NCBI GenBank assembly: GCA_028700905.1
Contig: JAQVRT010000040.1
Location: forward strand, 1 to 6,116
Length of the DNA stretch: 6,116 bases
From: Candidatus Iainarchaeum sp.
GTDB taxonomy: Archaea > Iainarchaeota > Iainarchaeia > Iainarchaeales > CSSED10-239
Direction: 5' to 3'
Shown here: piece by piece, positions 1 through 6,116 of the stretch
How positions within the stretch are numbered: position 1 is the first letter of the stretch
Layout: the number at the start of each line of letters is the position of its first letter
Notes under the pieces: generated by a model
Told to the model about the DNA's origin: nothing
The model's input: the letters and a program-made list of their open reading frames with translations, nothing else
Databases searched by the model: none
Position numbers and translations under genes: made by a program

Positions 1-678
1 CACATAAAAGTAGTCCTTAATAAAGCAAAAGAACATCATGGAACCTTTAGAACACAAGATTTAGAGTGGATAGGTGGAGAAAATAGAAAAGAAACAATTA
101 TCCAGGAAAACGGATGTTATTTAAAAACAGATGTTGAGAAAGTATTTTATTCAACAAGACTTGCAACAGAAAGAAAAAGAATAGCCTCTTTAGTCTTAGA
201 AAATGAAACAATAGGAGTTTTCTTTGCAGGAGTTGGTCCTTTTTCAATAGCAATTGCAAAACTTGCAAAACCAAAAGAAATTATTTCCATTGAACTTAAC
301 CCTATTGGTGTTAAATATATGGAAGAAAATATTTTAAAAAATCAAATGGAAAAAATAATAACACCAATAGAAGGAGATGTTAAAGAAATATCTAAAAGAT
401 ATCCAAACTATTTTGATAGAATACCAATGCCACTTCCAAAATCTGCAGAAAATTTTTTAGATGATGCAATTTTTTCAATAAAAGATCAAGGAATAATACA
501 CATTTATAATTTTGTATCTAAAAATGAACCATTTAAAGAAATTGAAAAAATAATAAAAGAAAAAGAAAAAAAGAATAATTGTAAGATAGAAATAATATTT
601 AAGAAAGTTATTAGAAGTTTTTCTCAAACCACTGTACAGATTGTAATGGATTTAAAAATATCTAAAGATCTTTCTTAA
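1..678 (+). CDS. trm5: tRNA (guanine37-N1)-methyltransferase Trm5 / Taw2 family (Met-10+ class I SAM methyltransferase), 5'-truncated by the window edge
   Basis: Frame 1 is open from base 1 to the TAA at 676-678, so the ORF-track ATG at 319 is internal. Translating 1-318 gives ...KVFYSTRLATERKRI..., then IGVFFAGVGPFSIAIAK (SAM motif I). ISIELNP, GDVKEI and DRIPMPLPKSAENFL (NLP-type catalytic loop) follow, in the canonical Trm5/TYW2 order. Trm5 and Taw2 cannot be separated by eye. Confidence 0.85.
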   Translation, partial: HIKVVLNKAKEHHGTFRTQDLEWIGGENRKETIIQENGCYLKTDVEKVFYSTRLATERKRIASLVLENETIGVFFAGVGPFSIAIAKLAKPKEIISIELNPIGVKYMEENILKNQMEKIITPIEGDVKEISKRYPNYFDRIPMPLPKSAENFLDDAIFSIKDQGIIHIYNFVSKNEPFKEIEKIIKEKEKKNNCKIEIIFKKVIRSFSQTTVQIVMDLKISKDLS

Positions 679-3031
679 GTTTAGGTTTCTTTTTAGAAGT
701 TTTAGATTTAGAAACTTCTTTTGGTTTTACTTCTTCTTTTTTCTTTGAAGGTTTAATTTTTGAAACTATTTTTTTAACACTTTTAATAGAATCACTTTTT
801 TCATTTTCAGAAAGAAGTTTCTTTCTTTTCTCAAGTTCAATTATTTGTTTATCAATAATTTTCTTTTCAAACTCAACTGAAGAAGTATCATAAACCATTT
901 TAGATTTAGAATCCTTTAAAACATCTTTATTTTTTATTCTTTCAAGCTCTAAAAGATATTTATCTCTCATTTCTTTATAAGTGAAAGGACTTATTTTTCC
1001 TTCAATTAATTTTTCATCTAAATAACCTATTTGTTTAATTATTCCTTCCTTTGAATGATGTTTTTTAAATCTTTCAACTTCAAAGACAATTGTTAAAACC
1101 ATTAAAAACAAAGCTGCAACAAATAAATAAAGATAAACATCTTTCTTCTCTTTTGAATAAATATAGATGTTTTGAGAAGAAGTTTCTTTTTCTTTACTTA
1201 CATTTTCATCTTCATCAGAAACAATAATTACAGAGCCTTGATTTGAAGAACTAATATCAATGACTAAAGTTTCAAGATCTGTATTTAAATAATAATCAAG
1301 AACTATTATTTCTGTTTCATAAAGATAATGTGCAAAATTAAGTATAGAGTTTGCAACATTTAATTGAGATTTTGCTTTTTCTTCATCTTTATTTTTATAG
1401 AAATCATGAGCATTTTTATAATAAATACCATGATCTAAGAAAGTTTTAGACCAAACATAATTTTCATTATTCATTGCACTTTGATTTCTTAAATCTTTAG
1501 TTAATTGATCATATTTAATATTAAAATCATTTAATGTAAAATTATTTTTACTGTCTTCTTGTGTTTTTATAACAGCTAAAGCAGTTGCTGAATCATAAAG
1601 TGAAGTTACATACCATCCTCTTTGATAATTAATCTTTGCAGCATTAAGTCTTCTTTTTAAATCTTCAGTATCTGCTATGTTTGGAGCAACTAAAATTAAT
1701 TGATTTTCAACAGATATAATGCTTTCTTGTGCTTTTTCTTTAAAAAAGTTAGATTCTACAAACTTTAAATCATTATTTGTTGTAATTGATGCATCTAAAA
1801 AATCATTTGCAATTTCTGTCCATGCTAAAGCATAAGCATATTCTTGTATTTTTGAAAAATTATTTATAGTTTGCTTTTCTTTTAAAGATTCAACTTTATC
1901 TCTTGCCCAAGTAATTCTTTGTCTTCCACCAACACACCATTCTAAATATTCAATTGAACAGTTGTTAGATCTATTTTCTGTTAAAGTTATTTTTTCATCA
2001 AGTTCAGAAACTCTAAGATCAAAAATAATTGAAGAATCTGCTAAAATTGATGGGTTTGTAATAATTTCTTCAACAGAGATTATATTAATATAAGCTAAAA
2101 AAGAATTATTTGCTGCTGAATAAAAATAATTATTTTCATAAAACTTTTTTGAATTTTCAACAAGTTCTTCAGAATAAGTAACTGTTGATAAAAGTGTATC
2201 TAGAACATCTAAATCTTTTATGTTAGAGGAAGATATTTTAGAATTAATTGAAGATAATTTTTCTTCAGTATTAAGAATATATTCTTCAGTTATTTTTTTT
2301 AAAGGCTCGACTGCTTTAGAATATTCAATTTTATTATAAACAAAATCATCTACTTTTTCTTCTTGAATAGAATTTACATCAATTGAAGAAACATCTCTAA
2401 AAGCATAATCTAGAACATCATCAATAGTTGATACTTCAATAATCTTTAAACCCCATTCATTATAAGCATGCTCAATTAAATCAACTTGTTTAATTTCATC
2501 ATCTTCATTAATCACTTGAGATCTATTTCCTTGAGGTATGAAAAATAAATCAATACCTATTTCAGAAGCTTTTTTTGCTTTATAATATATTCCACCAACA
2601 TCTCCAATATATCCGTCAATTGAAATTGAACCAGTCATACTTACATTTTCAGGAACAGGAGTATCTTTAAACATTGAAATTATTAAAAGAGCCATTGCAC
2701 CACCTGCAGATGGACCATCTATAGTGTGTGCATTTGAAGTAATATCAACTGTAAAATCATACTCTTGCTTAATATCTTCTTTTATAACTGAATCTGCAAC
2801 TGCAATTGCATTTTTAAAAGATTCTTGTGTTGAAGAACCTACTATTGATTCATCTATTGAAGAATATATTTTTCCAGTACCAGGTATAATTTTTACATTT
2901 AACTGTGCATCTTTTGCACTTGTTTCACCAGATACTGCAAAAATCTTCATATTAGCATCAGAAACTAATGCGAAAAGATTAGGCATTAAAAGTATTAAAA
3001 ATAATAATATTGCAATTGATTTAATTTTCAT
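662..3031 (-). CDS. Membrane-anchored, ATPase-less Lon-like S16 serine protease with a large extracytoplasmic domain and a basic cytoplasmic tail
   Basis: Complete 789-aa ORF (ATG 3029-3031, TAG 662-664). N-terminal hydrophobic signal/anchor is MKIKSIAILLFLILLMPNLFALVSDA. Lon proteolytic-domain motifs are TIDGPSAGGAMALL (catalytic Ser108) and DVGGIYYKAKKASEIGIDLFFIPQGN (Lys151, 43 residues after the Ser, the spacing I recall for E. coli Lon). No Walker A/B motif occurs anywhere. A second TM helix spans aa 632-651 and is followed by ERFKKHHSK (positive-inside). Confidence 0.85.
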   Translation of the reverse strand: MKIKSIAILLFLILLMPNLFALVSDANMKIFAVSGETSAKDAQLNVKIIPGTGKIYSSIDESIVGSSTQESFKNAIAVADSVIKEDIKQEYDFTVDITSNAHTIDGPSAGGAMALLIISMFKDTPVPENVSMTGSISIDGYIGDVGGIYYKAKKASEIGIDLFFIPQGNRSQVINEDDEIKQVDLIEHAYNEWGLKIIEVSTIDDVLDYAFRDVSSIDVNSIQEEKVDDFVYNKIEYSKAVEPLKKITEEYILNTEEKLSSINSKISSSNIKDLDVLDTLLSTVTYSEELVENSKKFYENNYFYSAANNSFLAYINIISVEEIITNPSILADSSIIFDLRVSELDEKITLTENRSNNCSIEYLEWCVGGRQRITWARDKVESLKEKQTINNFSKIQEYAYALAWTEIANDFLDASITTNNDLKFVESNFFKEKAQESIISVENQLILVAPNIADTEDLKRRLNAAKINYQRGWYVTSLYDSATALAVIKTQEDSKNNFTLNDFNIKYDQLTKDLRNQSAMNNENYVWSKTFLDHGIYYKNAHDFYKNKDEEKAKSQLNVANSILNFAHYLYETEIIVLDYYLNTDLETLVIDISSSNQGSVIIVSDEDENVSKEKETSSQNIYIYSKEKKDVYLYLFVAALFLMVLTIVFEVERFKKHHSKEGIIKQIGYLDEKLIEGKISPFTYKEMRDKYLLELERIKNKDVLKDSKSKMVYDTSSVEFEKKIIDKQIIELEKRKKLLSENEKSDSIKSVKKIVSKIKPSKKKEEVKPKEVSKSKTSKKKPKLKKDL
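695..722 (+). terminator. Possible trm5 terminator: 8-bp hairpin followed by a T-run, embedded in the convergent gene
   Basis: agaagttt (695-702) pairs perfectly with aaacttct (712-719) across a 9-nt loop, followed by T-run 719-722. A further oligo-T (tttcttttt, 686-694) lies 8 nt after the trm5 stop. The T-richness is partly forced by Lys (AAA/AAG) codons of the opposite-strand gene, so this may be incidental. Confidence 0.25.
935..1036 (-). other. SHOCT-like short helical motif in the cytoplasmic tail
   Basis: aa 666-699, KQIGYLDEKLIEGKISPFTYKEMRDKYLLELERI, resembles the SHOCT pattern (L..L...G.I+..eY...+..LL). The rest of the tail (aa 700-789) is Lys/Glu/Ser-rich and ends KKKPKLKKDL. This is motif-level resemblance only. 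Confidence 0.35.
1079..1138 (-). other. Transmembrane helix (aa 632-651, VYLYLFVAALFLMVLTIVFE) separating the ectodomain from the cytoplasmic tail
   Basis: About 20 consecutive hydrophobic residues. Acidic/polar sequence lies before them and the basic cluster RFKKHHSK after them. Confidence 0.75.
2396..2950 (-). other. Lon_C-type (S16) proteolytic domain with an intact Ser-Lys dyad
   Basis: Covers aa ~28-212 of the 789-aa ORF. The Ser108 codon is tct (revcomp of 2708-2710) inside GPSAG. The Lys151 codon is aaa (revcomp of 2579-2581) inside GGIYYKAKKA. Both were verified against the nucleotide sequence. Confidence 0.8.
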
Positions 3032-3039
3032 GTTTTCTT

Positions 3040-3045
3040 CCTCTC
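3040..3045 (-). promoter_or_regulatory. Shine-Dalgarno-like site for the Lon-like gene
   Basis: The minus strand reads ...TTTGAGAGGAAGAAAAC-ATG, with GAGAGG 8 nt upstream of the start codon. Confidence 0.5.
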
Positions 3046-3061
3046 AAATAAATAGTTTTCA

Positions 3062-3093
3062 ATATAATATATATCATATAATATTTATTTAAA
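3062..3093 (-). promoter_or_regulatory. Candidate archaeal TATA-box region in the only sizeable intergenic gap (3032-3095)
   Basis: The minus strand reads CCTTTAAATAAATATTATATGATATATATTATATTG. TTTAAATA (revcomp of ~3086-3093) would put a TSS about 30 nt upstream of the ATG. The background is very AT-rich, so specificity is low. Confidence 0.3.
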
Positions 3094-3095
3094 GG

Positions 3096-3560
3096 TTACT
3101 TTTTCTTGTTTTTGAAAAGAAGATTAAATTTTTTAGTTGTAGAAAGAATATTTTTCCTTCCTTTTTTTTCAATTGCAATTAAATCTAGTTCTTTAAGTAT
3201 TTTTAAGTCTTCAAAAGGTCTTTTCTTACTTATTTTTGATTGTTCAACAGGAGCATTTAAAGAAATAAAAGCTAAAGTTTTAAGTTCAGATTTTGAAAGA
3301 GTTGTTCCTGTTGCAAAAATATTAAAAGAATGGAATTCTGGTTTTACAACAATCTCTAATTTTTTATTATCTTTAATAATTGAAAGAGAAGTTTTTCTTT
3401 TATTATAATCATTAATTAAATCATCTATCTGAATATCAATTATTTTTTTATCAATATTTGGAAATGAAGAATAAATTTTTGAAATTAAAGTTGATTTTGG
3501 AGATAGAAACAAAATAGCTTCTATTGCTTGTTTTAAATAATCACTACTTGTTTGGTCCAT
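3096..3560 (-). CDS. scpB: ScpB-like segregation and condensation protein B (short form, two winged-helix domains)
   Basis: Complete 154-aa ORF. The N-terminus, LKQAIEAILFLSPKSTLISKI, matches the ScpB signature (EAlLFas.ePls). The second half, LSKSELKTLAFISLNAPVEQSKISKKR...LKELDLIAIEKKGRKNILSTTKKFNLLF, matches the second ScpB wHTH (Ls.aalEtLaiIAY.QPit..eI..iR ... L.e.glI...gr....y.tT..Fl..F). Confidence 0.7.
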   Translation of the reverse strand: MDQTSSDYLKQAIEAILFLSPKSTLISKIYSSFPNIDKKIIDIQIDDLINDYNKRKTSLSIIKDNKKLEIVVKPEFHSFNIFATGTTLSKSELKTLAFISLNAPVEQSKISKKRPFEDLKILKELDLIAIEKKGRKNILSTTKKFNLLFKNKKK

Positions 3561-3579
3561 TATAAATCACATGTTAAAA

Positions 3580-4353
3580 TTATTCATTTATTGCAACTAA
3601 TGTTTCATTTCTTTCAGGCATAGTATAAGTAAAAGTTTCTTGATTAGAAATTCTACTTGAAGTACTTCTCTCTACCCAATAAATATTATTATTAGATTCT
3701 ACTGATGAAATCATTTTTATAGAAACAATAACATTTTCTCCTGCTTGATATTCTCCATCTCCAGATAAAGTAGCTGAAACACCAGTTTCATTTTCTAAAG
3801 TTAAAGTATAAGTTTCTGGCTCAGAAGATTCTGATTGAAAAGTTGCAGTTACATTTCTTGCTTGAGTCATGGAAACTGTACAAGTAGATCGAGATCCTGA
3901 ACAAGCACCTGACCATTCTATAAAATCATAACCTGGTATTCGATTTATAATTAAAGTAACTGAAGTTCCTGAAGAATAATTTTGAGAACAATCAGCTCCA
4001 CAATTAATACCTGGAGGATTTGAAGTTACAGTTCCATTTCCAGAAACATTAACAGTTAATGTATAATTTTCAGGATCTGGTTCATCTGGTTCATCTGGTT
4101 CATCTGGATTAGGATCATCTCCTCCAGGATTAGGATTAATATTATCTATTTCTTCAACTTGAGAAGAATCATTTAAATCTTTAATAAAACCATCAACTGT
4201 TGAATCTATTCCTTCATTAATTTTATCTGATTGATTTACTTTCTCATTTGAAAAATTAATAAAGGTTGTAGCTAGAACAATTGTTCCTAAGACTAAAATA
4301 CCAACAATAATTACCATCTCTAAAGATACTTGAGCTTTTTTACTTTGAATCAT
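3580..4353 (-). CDS. Archaeal type IV pilin-like protein (class III signal peptide) fused to InlB B-repeat adhesin-type domains
   Basis: Complete 257-aa ORF. It starts MIQSKKA|QVSLEMVIIVGILVLGTIVLATTF: a short basic leader, Ala at -1, Gln +1, Ser +3, Glu +5, then a hydrophobic helix (DUF361/QxSxE-type prepilin signal). A Pro/Asp/Glu linker follows at aa 72-96. Next is a divergent InlB B-repeat (aa 97-172, GINCGADCS...[26 protein letters not shown]). Last is a classic Listeria-Bacteroides-type repeat (aa 181-255, YTLTL...FTYTMPERNETLVA). Confidence 0.8.
   Translation of the reverse strand: MIQSKKAQVSLEMVIIVGILVLGTIVLATTFINFSNEKVNQSDKINEGIDSTVDGFIKDLNDSSQVEEIDNINPNPGGDDPNPDEPDEPDEPDPENYTLTVNVSGNGTVTSNPPGINCGADCSQNYSSGTSVTLIINRIPGYDFIEWSGACSGSRSTCTVSMTQARNVTATFQSESSEPETYTLTLENETGVSATLSGDGEYQAGENVIVSIKMISSVESNNNIYWVERSTSSRISNQETFTYTMPERNETLVAINE
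3838..4057 (-). repeat. B-repeat cassette copy in the pilin-like gene, homologous at DNA level to 5811-6030
   Basis: Gap-free alignment at a constant offset of 1973 nt. A hand count gives 184/220 identical positions. Perfect blocks are 3838-3886 = 5811-5859 (49 nt) and 3951-3983 = 5924-5956 (33 nt). Confidence 0.9.
4075..4107 (-). repeat. Perfect 9-nt tandem repeat (atctggttc x3.7) encoding (PDE)n in the pilin-like linker
   Basis: Units lie at 4075-4083, 4084-4092 and 4093-4101, with a partial unit at 4102-4107. The minus-strand translation is PDEPDEPDEPD. Confidence 0.95.
4261..4353 (-). other. Class III (prepilin-type) signal peptide plus hydrophobic N-terminal helix; predicted cleavage between Ala7 and Gln8
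   Basis: KKA|QVSLE has a basic residue at -2, a small residue at -1 and Glu at +5, then about 22 hydrophobic residues. This is the pattern recognised by archaeal PibD/FlaK/EppA-type peptidases. Confidence 0.7.
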
Positions 4354-4376
4354 ATTTTAACCACATTTTTATAAAA

Positions 4377-6116
4377 TTATTCTAATCCACCATCAATAAT
4401 AGTCCAACCATAGTCATTAATTAATTTATTTCTAGAATCTACAGCAGAATTATCATAATTTACTGCTGTTGCTCCTAATGTTACATTAGTTTTTAAATTA
4501 TCTAAACTACTCCATTTAATTAAAAGTTTAGTATAATTTACAGTAGATAAAGCATAATCAAACATATGATCCATATCAATTACATTTGAAACATTCCAAG
4601 AACTAATATCTTGATCAAAACAAATATCACTAACACTAAAAAAACACATAAACATCCTATTCATATTTGTAACATTTGAAACATCCCACATACTTATATC
4701 TTGATTAAATGAATAATTATTATAAAACATAGAAGACATATCAGTTACATTTGAAACATCCCAATTATTCAATGGTTGATTAAATCTAGTACATCTAAAC
4801 ATTGAAGACATATTAGTTACATTTGAAACATCCCAATTATTTATAGAAGTATTAGTCCATGAAAATACACCATTATTTGGAGGATTACTTACACTACAAT
4901 TTTGATAACCACTAAAAGTACCTGCTAAATTTGTAACTCCATTTAGATCAGGAACATCAGTTGCAGTTACAACTAAATTTGTAGCTCCAGAGAAATAATA
5001 TCCATTATTTCCGAATTTTAAATTACCCCATTGACTAATTTCTGTTAATTTTAATTTATCTCCAGAATTATTAAACCTAAAACCTTCAATAAAACCAGTT
5101 ATTACAACAGTGTAAACTCCTGGTGCTGAATATGTATGAGTTTTATCAGGATCACTATAACTTGTAACCTCAGATGTAGTTCCATCTCCCCAATAAACTT
5201 TAAAATTATAATTATTACTATAATAAGAAGCAGAATCTAAAGGTAATGTAATTTGATTTGCACTGGAAGATCCAGTACTAATTTTTGTAGTATCCCATTT
5301 AGATATAAATGCATCTGAAGTAGGTATAAAATTTGCAGTTAAATTCACATTACTTGAAGGCATTGTATAACTAAATGAAGGATCTGTACTAACTACAGTA
5401 CCATTTTGATCAATCCAATTTACATAAGAAAATTCAGCAGTAGAAGTTATAGATATTTTTGCAACATCTCCAGGATTATAATTTCCTGCACCATTTAAAC
5501 TAATATGTACTGAATCTGGATTTTCAATTAAATTTAAATTATAAGCAACAGGCAAACTAAAAGTTGCAGTTACATTTTTAACTTCAGTCATAGAAACAGA
5601 ACAACTAATTTGAGATCCAGAACAAGCACCTGACCATCCTTCAAAAACATATCCTGAAACTGGAGTTGCATTTAATTGAACAGATTGTTGATCAGGAAAA
5701 GTTGCAGAACAGTTTGTTTGTGATTCTAAACAATTAATTCCAGAAGGATAAGTTTCAACAGTTCCTCCAATTGTTTTAGTTAAATTTAAAGTATAACTAT
5801 TTGGAAGATTAAAAGTTGCAGTTACATTTCTTGCTTGAGTCATGGAAACTGTACAAGTAAGATTAGTTCCAGAACAAGCACCTGACCATCCACCAAAACT
5901 ATGACCTGTAACAGGATTTGCAGTTAAAGTAACTGAAGTTCCTGAAGAATAATTTTCAGAACAATCAGAACCACAATTAATACCTAAAGGACTTGAAGTC
6001 ACAGTTCCATTTCCCGCACCACTTAAAGATACATTTAAAGTATAAGTTGATGGAGCTGTTGATGAAAAATTTGCAATTAAAGAAGTATTTGAATTTAAAG
6101 TAAAAGTATATGGATT
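4377..6116 (-). CDS. Large secreted/surface protein, 5'-truncated by the window: InlB B-repeats plus a C-terminal DUF285/BspA-like 26-residue-repeat domain
   Basis: The reading frame stays open from 6002 to the window edge at 6116 ([49 protein letters not shown]...). The ORF-track start at 6002 is therefore an internal GTG in the middle of a repeat domain. Domains: divergent B-repeat 1 (5811-6044), divergent B-repeat 2 (5559-5795), classic B-repeat (5328-5543), then FISKWDT...[10 protein letters not shown]...[15 protein letters not shown]. Four W[DN]VSNV(T/I)(N/D)MxxMF...FNQDIS units follow, the signature of the bacterial surface protein 26-residue repeat (DUF285). Stop codon at 4377-4379. 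Confidence 0.9.
4551..4841 (-). repeat. In-frame tandem coding repeats (24-30 aa period) of the DUF285/BspA-like domain
   Basis: acatttgaaacat[ct]cca (minus strand W-D/N-V-S-N-V) recurs at 4581, 4671, 4746 and 4818, giving spacings of 90, 75 and 72 nt. A 27-nt perfect repeat links 4743-4769 and 4815-4841. Confidence 0.9.
5811..6030 (-). repeat. B-repeat cassette copy in the large surface-protein gene, homologous at DNA level to 3838-4057
   Basis: Same alignment as above. A third, more diverged copy of the same domain lies at 5559-5795 and shares the terminal aatgtaactgcaactttt on the minus strand. Confidence 0.9.

Follow-up and report, generated by a model that had tools for sequence, protein, structure and literature searches.

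Lon-type proteases that act outside the cell, independently of ATP, have been described in Firmicutes. SepM trims secreted pheromones (10.1101/2022.05.27.493805), and DdcP/YlbL, which is extracellular by proteinase K accessibility, removes the membrane-bound division inhibitor YneA (10.1101/391730; PMC8767453). These proteins are ~340 amino acids (aa) long and combine an N-terminal transmembrane (TM) anchor, a PDZ domain and a Lon domain (MEROPS family S16) that works with a Ser-Lys dyad and without an AAA+ module. The archaeal LonB protease, which is membrane-bound and ATP-dependent, is built differently, with TM helices inserted into its AAA+ part and both domains facing the cytoplasm (PMC4343526). 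Here we analyse a gene for another membrane-tethered Lon-type protein, found in a 6,116-nucleotide (nt) stretch of DNA from Candidatus Iainarchaeum sp. (the window; assembly GCA_028700905.1, contig JAQVRT010000040.1, positions 1 to 6,116). The gene (662..3031, minus strand; 789 codons and a stop in the list of open reading frames, ORFs) encodes, in this order, a signal peptide, a Lon_C domain, a helical ectodomain, a stalk, a TM helix and a basic tail. On balance, we favour the reading that its product is a type I membrane protein, that is, an outward-facing, ATP-independent Lon-type endopeptidase with a helical ectodomain, a TM helix and a cytoplasmic tail. Window coordinates given below are on the minus strand unless another strand is stated.

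The resemblance to SepM and DdcP/YlbL lies in the S16 Ser-Lys domain without AAA+, in the tethering to the membrane and in the predicted position of the catalytic domain outside the cell; as for those enzymes, exported peptides or exposed parts of membrane proteins would be the expected substrates. The differences are equally plain. Unlike SepM and DdcP, the archaeal protein has 789 aa, a signal peptide that is predicted to be cleaved, the Lon domain first, its anchor towards the C-terminus and a long cytoplasmic tail, and a helical domain of ~345 aa takes the place of PDZ. It is not a member of the SepM/DdcP family, since Pfam searches found no PDZ domain in it, the NCBIfam model SepM_fam_S16 gives 37.1 bits against a cut-off of 200 (the Lon part alone aligns) and the anchoring is opposite. 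With archaeal LonB it shares an S16 Ser-Lys protease domain and association with the membrane (PMC4343526); unlike LonB, it lacks the AAA+ module and its protease domain is predicted to face outward. It is not a canonical Lon either, because it is without an AAA+ module, and the NCBIfam equivalogs for LonA, LonB and LonC reach 50-74 bits against cut-offs of 517-891. An earlier reading, made by a model from the sequence only, had called an outward-facing Lon domain unusual. The architecture does differ from described ones, but with SepM and DdcP/YlbL, Lon-type proteases outside the cell are already established for bacteria (10.1101/2022.05.27.493805; 10.1101/391730), and database names for the archaeal proteins already exist.

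Lon domain, membrane topology and tail

The Lon proteolytic domain spans aa 22-212 (2396..2968), starting right after the signal peptide, and was recognized through Pfam, through the sequences of known structures and by fold comparison. Pfam Lon_C (PF05362) matches aa 64-211 (E=3e-17; 63.3 bits against a cut-off of 21.1) and is found in all 61 homologues that we aligned, and Lon protease-domain sequences from the PDB are matched at E ~1e-11. In an AlphaFold2 (AF2) model of the whole protein, built from the 61-sequence alignment (mean predicted local distance difference test score, pLDDT, 82.5), aa ~25-210 superpose on the Lon P domains of E. coli, B. subtilis and A. fulgidus (Foldseek E=1e-9; TM-scores of 0.7-0.8, normalised to the target, and ~0.8 for E. 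coli); a Foldseek search with the full-length model returned no matches other than Lon P domains. HMMER alignment sets Ser108 (in DGPSAG; codon 2708..2710) on the catalytic serine of Lon, and Lys151 (in GGIYYKAKKA; codon 2579..2581) falls on the lysine of the Lon motif GGxxxK. Both residues are invariant (61/61 aligned homologues, and 87/87 in a further count), as are G106-P107-A109-G110 and T133-G134 among the 61. Given the profile match, the fold match and the invariant dyad, the assignment of aa 22-212 to the Lon type is secure, and the enzyme looks catalytically competent from its residues. Searches of Pfam and NCBIfam gave no match to AAA+, and Pfam no domain other than Lon_C.

Hydropathy shows two hydrophobic segments and no more, at aa 1-28 and aa 630-656. 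The N-terminal one is built like a Sec-type signal peptide (aa 1-21; 2969..3031), which reads MKIK, a hydrophobic core and NLFA, followed by LV. The same pattern runs through the family: a basic n-region, an h-region of 13-16 residues, mostly V, I, A, T or S at position -3, and Ala at position -1 in 57 of 61 homologues. Because this form and its -3/-1 pattern hold family-wide, cleavage after Ala21 is likely, and the mature protein would then begin with the Lon domain. The N-terminal segment had been described as a signal or anchor; it resembles a signal peptide that is cut off rather than an anchor.

The second hydrophobic peak, which is also the last, corresponds to a single TM helix (aa ~632-652; 1076..1138; helix 632-658 in the AF2 model). 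A hydropathy scan found at least one such C-terminal segment in 82 of 87 homologues, exactly one in 74 and none in 5; those without it that were listed are ORFs broken or cut by the end of a contig. On either side of this helix the sequences differ in character. Of 82 homologues, 81 have an ectodomain with a net negative charge (median -29; -41 in the query) and 80 a C-terminal tail with a net positive one (median +15; +17 in the query); for N-x-S/T sequons the medians are 5.5 in the ectodomain and 0 in the tail. The protein has only two cysteines, Cys358 and Cys366 (CSIEYLEWC; 1934..1960), a putative disulfide. Their co-occurrence is strict (both in 18 homologues, neither in 69, one alone in 0), and a pair that varies together in this way fits a disulfide. 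From the distribution of charge and of sequons, the co-varying cysteines and the signal peptide, we infer with good support that the protease domain lies outside the cell. Much of this had been anticipated from the letters alone: a 789-aa, ATPase-less Lon-type protease, its Lon domain outside, one C-terminal TM helix ahead of a basic cytoplasmic tail and a CSIEYLEWC cysteine pair all agree with the profile searches, the invariant dyad, the hydropathy, the AF2 model and the charge and sequon counts.

The basic cytoplasmic tail (aa 653-789; 665..1075) carries a net charge of about +15 to +17, depending on where the TM helix is taken to end. It is modelled as two helices (661-676 and 682-709) and, further on, a Lys-rich disordered end (aa ~750-789). 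In homologues, the tail has a median length of 157 aa and its last 40 residues contain a median of 35% K+R, so that the Lys-rich character is conserved. The most distant relatives (~580-640 aa; Micrarchaeota, Naiadarchaeum) end 14-22 residues past the TM helix.

Next to the membrane, the two helices bear a conserved motif (aa 668-696, IGYLDEKLIEGKISPFTYKEMRDKYLLEL; 944..1030), which recurs family-wide as LD..L..GKIS..Y.E....Y..EL. It resembles the SHOCT domain (PF09851) as a short two-helix motif with a conserved Gly (here that of GKIS, along with its flanking helices) and with acidic and hydrophobic positions, and it follows a TM helix (PMC3581485). Unlike SHOCT, which 89% of SHOCT proteins carry in their last 50 residues (PMC3581485), it adjoins the membrane ~95 residues from the C-terminus. 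The Pfam model matches 2/61 members at E<0.01, the best of them at the aligned position with 25.4 bits against a cut-off of 27, and it has no match in the query tail searched alone at E up to 10. Since every member tested scores under the Pfam threshold, 'SHOCT-like', the term that had been used for this tail, is fair as a description of a motif-level resemblance and not as a statement of membership. The function of SHOCT is itself unknown, and its authors raised nucleic-acid binding as a possibility (PMC3581485).

The helical ectodomain and its archaeal family

Between the Lon domain and the TM helix, the protein consists of a linker, a large folded domain and a stalk. The linker (aa 213-238; 2318..2395) shows as a dip in pLDDT, is without regular secondary structure and holds a conserved F-x-P-x-x-I-x-Y-S motif in which P232 is nearly invariant. 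The all-alpha ectodomain that follows (aa 239-583; 1283..2317) has ~13 helices in the AF2 model, most of them 20-34 residues long. The stalk (aa 584-631; 1139..1282) is acidic, Ser-rich and predicted to be disordered, with pLDDT <50 at residues 588-630. Aa ~213-630 had been set down as one helix-rich region without an assignable family. It does lack a known family and is helical, but the folded part is confined to aa ~239-583, and residues 588-630 are predicted to be disordered.

Because Foldseek with the full-length model gave Lon P domains alone, aa 222-590 were modelled separately with the same homologues, reaching a pLDDT of 93.6 and a predicted template modelling score of 0.91. Even at this confidence the domain has no detectable relative. 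The middle region alone has no match in Pfam at E up to 10, NCBIfam holds no relative that we could detect, and a profile of 74 sequences found nothing credible among PDB sequences. The fold comparison that had been proposed for this region was made with Foldseek: the aa 222-590 model matches no PDB fold (best E 0.18, TM-score <0.2) and nothing in BFVD. A word-indexed profile search with the 74-sequence alignment returned 4 proteins and was uninformative. We therefore used an exhaustive phmmer search of 1.84 billion cluster representatives instead, which found 181 proteins with the helical domain at E<=1e-3. In the full-length matches (~550-870 aa) the domain begins at ~residue 220, right after the Lon domain; where it begins near residue 1, the matching proteins are short and seem to be pieces of genes that were truncated.

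The helical domain contains invariant positions of its own. In the 61-sequence alignment these are Y304, A307, N308, R372, W404, W527 and H534; in the 74-sequence set N308, R372 and W404 alone are fully invariant, and Y304, A307, W527, H534, E364, W365, R460 and R461 are conserved at >=90%. Because the conserved positions are polar or aromatic, they suggest a binding surface, and thus a part that may be more than a mere spacer. As a separate observation, profile-profile comparison of the two halves of the domain (hhalign) gave a weak alignment with a probability of 64-81%, in which the NYLYSAAN helix is paired with the GWYVTSLYDSATA helix. This is a weak hint that a unit of about six helices may have been duplicated in tandem long ago.

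An ORF of 2.4 kb with >100 full-length homologues, in DNA with a G+C content of ~25% (measured over the window), is not a random one. Over the gene, the DNA matches the complete genome of Candidatus Forterrea multitransposorum (CP045477.1) at 99% identity, and a protein in our set (P0001) is 98% identical to the 789-aa protease. Forterrea multitransposorum, a DPANN archaeon of the Diapherotrites/Iainarchaeota, stems from an aquifer in the deep subsurface; its metabolism is minimal, and it is predicted to live as a symbiont (PMC5905446). Iainarchaeota/Diapherotrites and metagenome-assembled genomes (MAGs) labelled 'archaeon' are the sources of the full-length homologues (720-870 aa, 27-67% identity), a few of which sit in bins labelled as bacterial, probably in error; Micrarchaeota, including Burarchaeum and Norongarragalinales, have shorter relatives. 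Our searches, including an outward walk from a distant member (L085), found DPANN proteins and none from a cultured archaeon or cultured euryarchaeon, and the family appears confined to DPANN archaea. Each of 86 fetched loci has one full-length copy. An extra Lon_C-like ORF was seen at a single locus, in an Iainarchaeum MAG, where it lies just downstream in convergent orientation (L082:8403-9173, minus strand; ~256 aa; E=9e-16 to the query).

The gene already belongs to an annotated, uncharacterised archaeal group of Lon-domain-only proteins, as its homologues carry exactly the names of that group: 'S16 family serine protease' at NCBI and 'predicted S18 family serine protease', the COG1750 name, at JGI (P0028, P0035, P0036, P0073, P0078, P0084, P0087, P0092, P0279, P0281 and P0283). 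Those names rest on the Lon domain alone, and the records are silent on the helical domain, the topology and the tail that we describe here. In the literature on COG1750 or 'archaeal serine protease' we found a passing mention in a genome paper and no study of this family.

The domain identity, the intact catalytic residues, the family-wide topology signals and a helical domain without detectable relative are observations around which a mechanism can be outlined. The protein would be exported by Sec and its signal peptide cleaved at Ala21. Outside the cell, the Ser108-Lys151 endopeptidase domain and the ~345-residue helical domain would be held by the flexible acidic stalk, the TM helix and the basic, helical tail in the cytoplasm. 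Since there is no unfoldase, cutting would be limited to extended or unfolded segments; by analogy with SepM and DdcP, likely substrates would be exported peptides and the exposed tails of membrane or secreted proteins. The helical domain, which takes the place of PDZ, may select or gate these substrates, and the tail probably serves in assembly or in the binding of a partner inside the cell. The catalytic activity, oligomeric state, substrate class and tail role in this outline are ones that we infer.

Several points weigh against this outline. Lon protease domains in isolation can have poor activity. The topology was derived from rules of hydropathy, charge and signal peptides, and the cysteine pair is limited to one clade, where it could be a mere clade marker. 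Finally, the partners that recur beside the gene (scpB, scpA and smc) are cytoplasmic and DNA-organising, and a simple exoprotease model does not predict them.

Gene neighbourhood and competing explanations

Directly upstream of the protease gene, and on the same strand, lies scpB, which encodes a condensin subunit (3096..3560; Pfam SMC_ScpB E=7e-18). The spacer between the two (3032-3095), read from the sequence, measures 64 nt, as previously stated. It holds a TATA-like TTTAAATA at 3086-3093, which may serve as a promoter, and a GAGG at 3040-3043, 8 nt ahead of the ATG. Further upstream and co-directional are genes for a protein with a class III signal peptide and InlB B-repeats (3580-4353, minus strand) and for a protein with DUF285/PARCEL repeats and InlB B-repeats (4377-6116, minus strand). 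The latter is listed as a 541-aa ORF from a GTG; its frame is open up to the window edge, so the gene is cut by the window. Its counterparts have 730 aa (in the 99%-identical genome) and 764 aa (in a 98% relative), so that strains seem to differ in its length; what had been taken for a 'giant adhesin' thus reaches only ~730-764 aa in near-identical genomes. Downstream, the C-terminal part of a Trm5b-type tRNA (m1G37) methyltransferase gene (1-678, plus strand), cut by the window start, is convergent with the protease gene, and its last 17 nt overlap the protease gene's 3' end. A scan of the window for Rfam families and tRNAs found none.

We compared this arrangement across the 86 loci by homology searches with the window proteins, iterative searches, clustering of flanking ORFs and a pattern for class III signal peptides, and added Pfam-annotated contigs. 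The loci were divided by identity to the query into clade 1 (its own; >=40%, 17 loci) and clade 2 (<=37%, 69 loci). The usual order in clade 1 is scpA, a variable insert, scpB and the protease gene, then convergent trm5 and aliA/B. The scpB gene is directly upstream and co-directional in 17/17 clade 1 loci, and scpA is further upstream in 14/17. Where the three genes are contiguous, the called gaps of 11-13 nt suggest an scpA-scpB-protease operon.

Clade 2 has a different partner. None of its 69 loci has a nearby homologue of the window's pilin, adhesin, ScpA, ScpB or Trm5, and the most conserved neighbour is an SMC protein of ~990 aa, found at <=5 kb in 49 of the 54 loci whose flanks are long enough. 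In 36 loci it is the immediate neighbour of the protease gene (convergent downstream in 32, tandem upstream in 4), and in others, including a Micrarchaeota locus, it is tandem downstream; a Micrarchaeota relative has smc 1.2 kb away. Its heads are those of a true Smc (TIGR02169, 548 bits; E=2e-96 to Pyrococcus Smc), and an assignment as Rad50 was ruled out, the heads reaching E=1e-23 to Rad50. These smc-linked loci adjoin a conserved ftsZ-secE-nusG-L11-L1-L10-L12 block. Two more distant relatives are without close smc linkage: one has none (P0104), and the other a distant smc only (P0114).

Some features of the SMC neighbour stand apart from the question of linkage. In this protein (L006:9473-12442, minus strand; ~49 loci, e.g. 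L020, L024, L028 and L039), the hinge positions of the profile (~488-692) are missing, and a single central CP[VIT]C occurs at ~residue 488 in 32/36 full-length copies; it looks as if a Rad50-type zinc hook replaces the SMC hinge. One copy (L039:2267-5887, plus strand) has an intein near the P-loop at aa ~38-228 (Pfam Intein_splicing E=2e-27), with NCBIfam intein N- and C-terminal regions also matched, and a 1157-aa copy (L030) may carry one too. A BREX or Lamassu-type context was rejected, as PADLOC gave no defence match for the protease, ScpA or ScpB.

Association with SMC-ScpAB genes thus spans the family, a conserved neighbourhood that the sequence-only reading had missed. Inherited synteny may account for part of it, because the smc-linked loci adjoin the ribosomal and ftsZ block. 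Pure chance is an unlikely reason for finding the gene, in both clades and in several arrangements, beside genes for subunits of a single complex of three proteins. This adjacency speaks for an alternative that we regard as doubtful, in which the protein would connect the envelope with chromosome segregation or cell division: the basic, Lys-rich, SHOCT-like tail would contact DNA or SMC-ScpAB, and the outward protease would act on a factor of the envelope or of division, removing or processing it as DdcP degrades YneA. In its stricter form, which we hold to be slightly less likely still, the protein would be a transmembrane coupler between condensin (or the nucleoid) and the envelope, its tail binding DNA or condensin, its ectodomain processing targets outside and the adjacency reflecting function. 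The counts speak for such coupling, with scpB directly upstream in 17/17 clade 1 loci (called gaps down to 13 nt) and scpA further upstream in 14/17, SMC within 5 kb in 49/54 clade 2 loci (adjacent in 36, in three arrangements) and smc at 1.2 kb in a Micrarchaeota relative. A Lys-rich C-terminus conserved in character, and the nucleic-acid binding raised for SHOCT (PMC3581485), point the same way. Yet convergent neighbours are not co-transcribed, the position beside the ftsZ-secE-nusG-L11-L1-L10-L12 block means that inherited synteny could explain much, and both arrangements could stem from one chance ancestral cluster. Moreover, distant relatives have no link or a distant smc (P0104 and P0114, respectively), and the shortest family members are almost tail-less.

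The surface-protein genes invite another explanation, which we consider improbable: that the enzyme matures or sheds the neighbouring pilin-like and adhesin-like proteins. Genes with class III signal peptides, InlB B-repeats and DUF285 are co-directional upstream in the window and in close relatives, and the protease and these surface proteins are predicted to face the same compartment. Pilin-like genes occur at 11/17 clade 1 loci, in varying number, position and size (71-1028 aa). In clade 2, however, a pilin-like gene of any kind is near the protease in 2/69 loci, and no homologue of the window's pilin or adhesin is found. The cassette is variable in content, size and position, sitting between scpA and scpB (as in Forterrea) or before scpA, and it is absent where scpA, scpB and the protease gene are contiguous. 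In archaea, furthermore, aspartyl peptidases dedicated to the task process prepilins, and DPANN genomes are rich in pilin-like genes. The surface-protein linkage is therefore clade-specific and looks like a variable cassette, and a functional link to the pilin and adhesin genes, as proposed before, is not borne out by conserved linkage.

Two observations on these genes can be added. The scpA-scpB junction is a variable insertion site (window 3580-6116, minus strand; L001:5981-9446; L002:3956-9483; L004:1125-6264; L009; L011; L015), which holds, depending on the genome, nothing (an 11-nt gap), small pilin-like genes, large B-repeat/DUF285 surface proteins or, as a further alternative, an ABC transporter with a RelA/SpoT-like gene. 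A Micrarchaeota locus (Norongarragalinales; L089:3827-5337, minus strand) has four tandem class III signal-peptide genes (58-113 aa), divergent and within 2 kb upstream of the Lon-like gene, and a Band_7 (SPFH) gene 2.5 kb downstream; its four pilin genes would speak for a role in maturation.

A protease turned outward could also feed the cell or act on a host, degrading external or host-surface proteins for an auxotrophic symbiont. We give this explanation as little weight as maturation. In its favour, a symbiotic way of life is predicted for this DPANN archaeon, whose metabolism is minimal (PMC5905446), the protease is predicted to face outward, and the family is confined to DPANN lineages within the reach of our searches. 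One full-length copy per fetched locus, tethering, a long conserved tail and a housekeeping context are better matched by regulated processing, and none of the recurrent neighbours is a transporter of peptides or amino acids. Folded proteins are also poor substrates for Lon domains that lack an unfoldase.

Lastly, a cytoplasmic protease domain (inverted topology) or a catalytically dead scaffold is hardly credible: Lon-like domains are non-proteolytic in RadA/Sms and ChlI/ComM, to which weak matches were seen, but the canonical signal peptide with its -3/-1 cleavage motif, the strong family-wide charge asymmetry and sequon bias, and the Ser, Lys and surrounding motifs that are invariant in all homologues argue against it.

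Meaning for DPANN archaea

Read as an outward-facing, membrane-tethered Lon-type endopeptidase, the protein would bring archaea into the class of ATP-independent outward Lon proteases described in Firmicutes, and with another architecture. Little is known of the ways in which DPANN archaea, with their tiny genomes, build a surface, divide and make contact with hosts. If the doubtful coupling reading were true, a coupler of this kind would link the segregation of chromosomes with division or the remodelling of the surface, and would thereby join chromosome organisation to the archaeal envelope in a new way. The family is widespread in Iainarchaeota, and the intact dyad, together with a confidently modelled ectodomain that has no detectable relative in Pfam, NCBIfam, the PDB or BFVD, makes it a tractable target for work on its structure and substrates.

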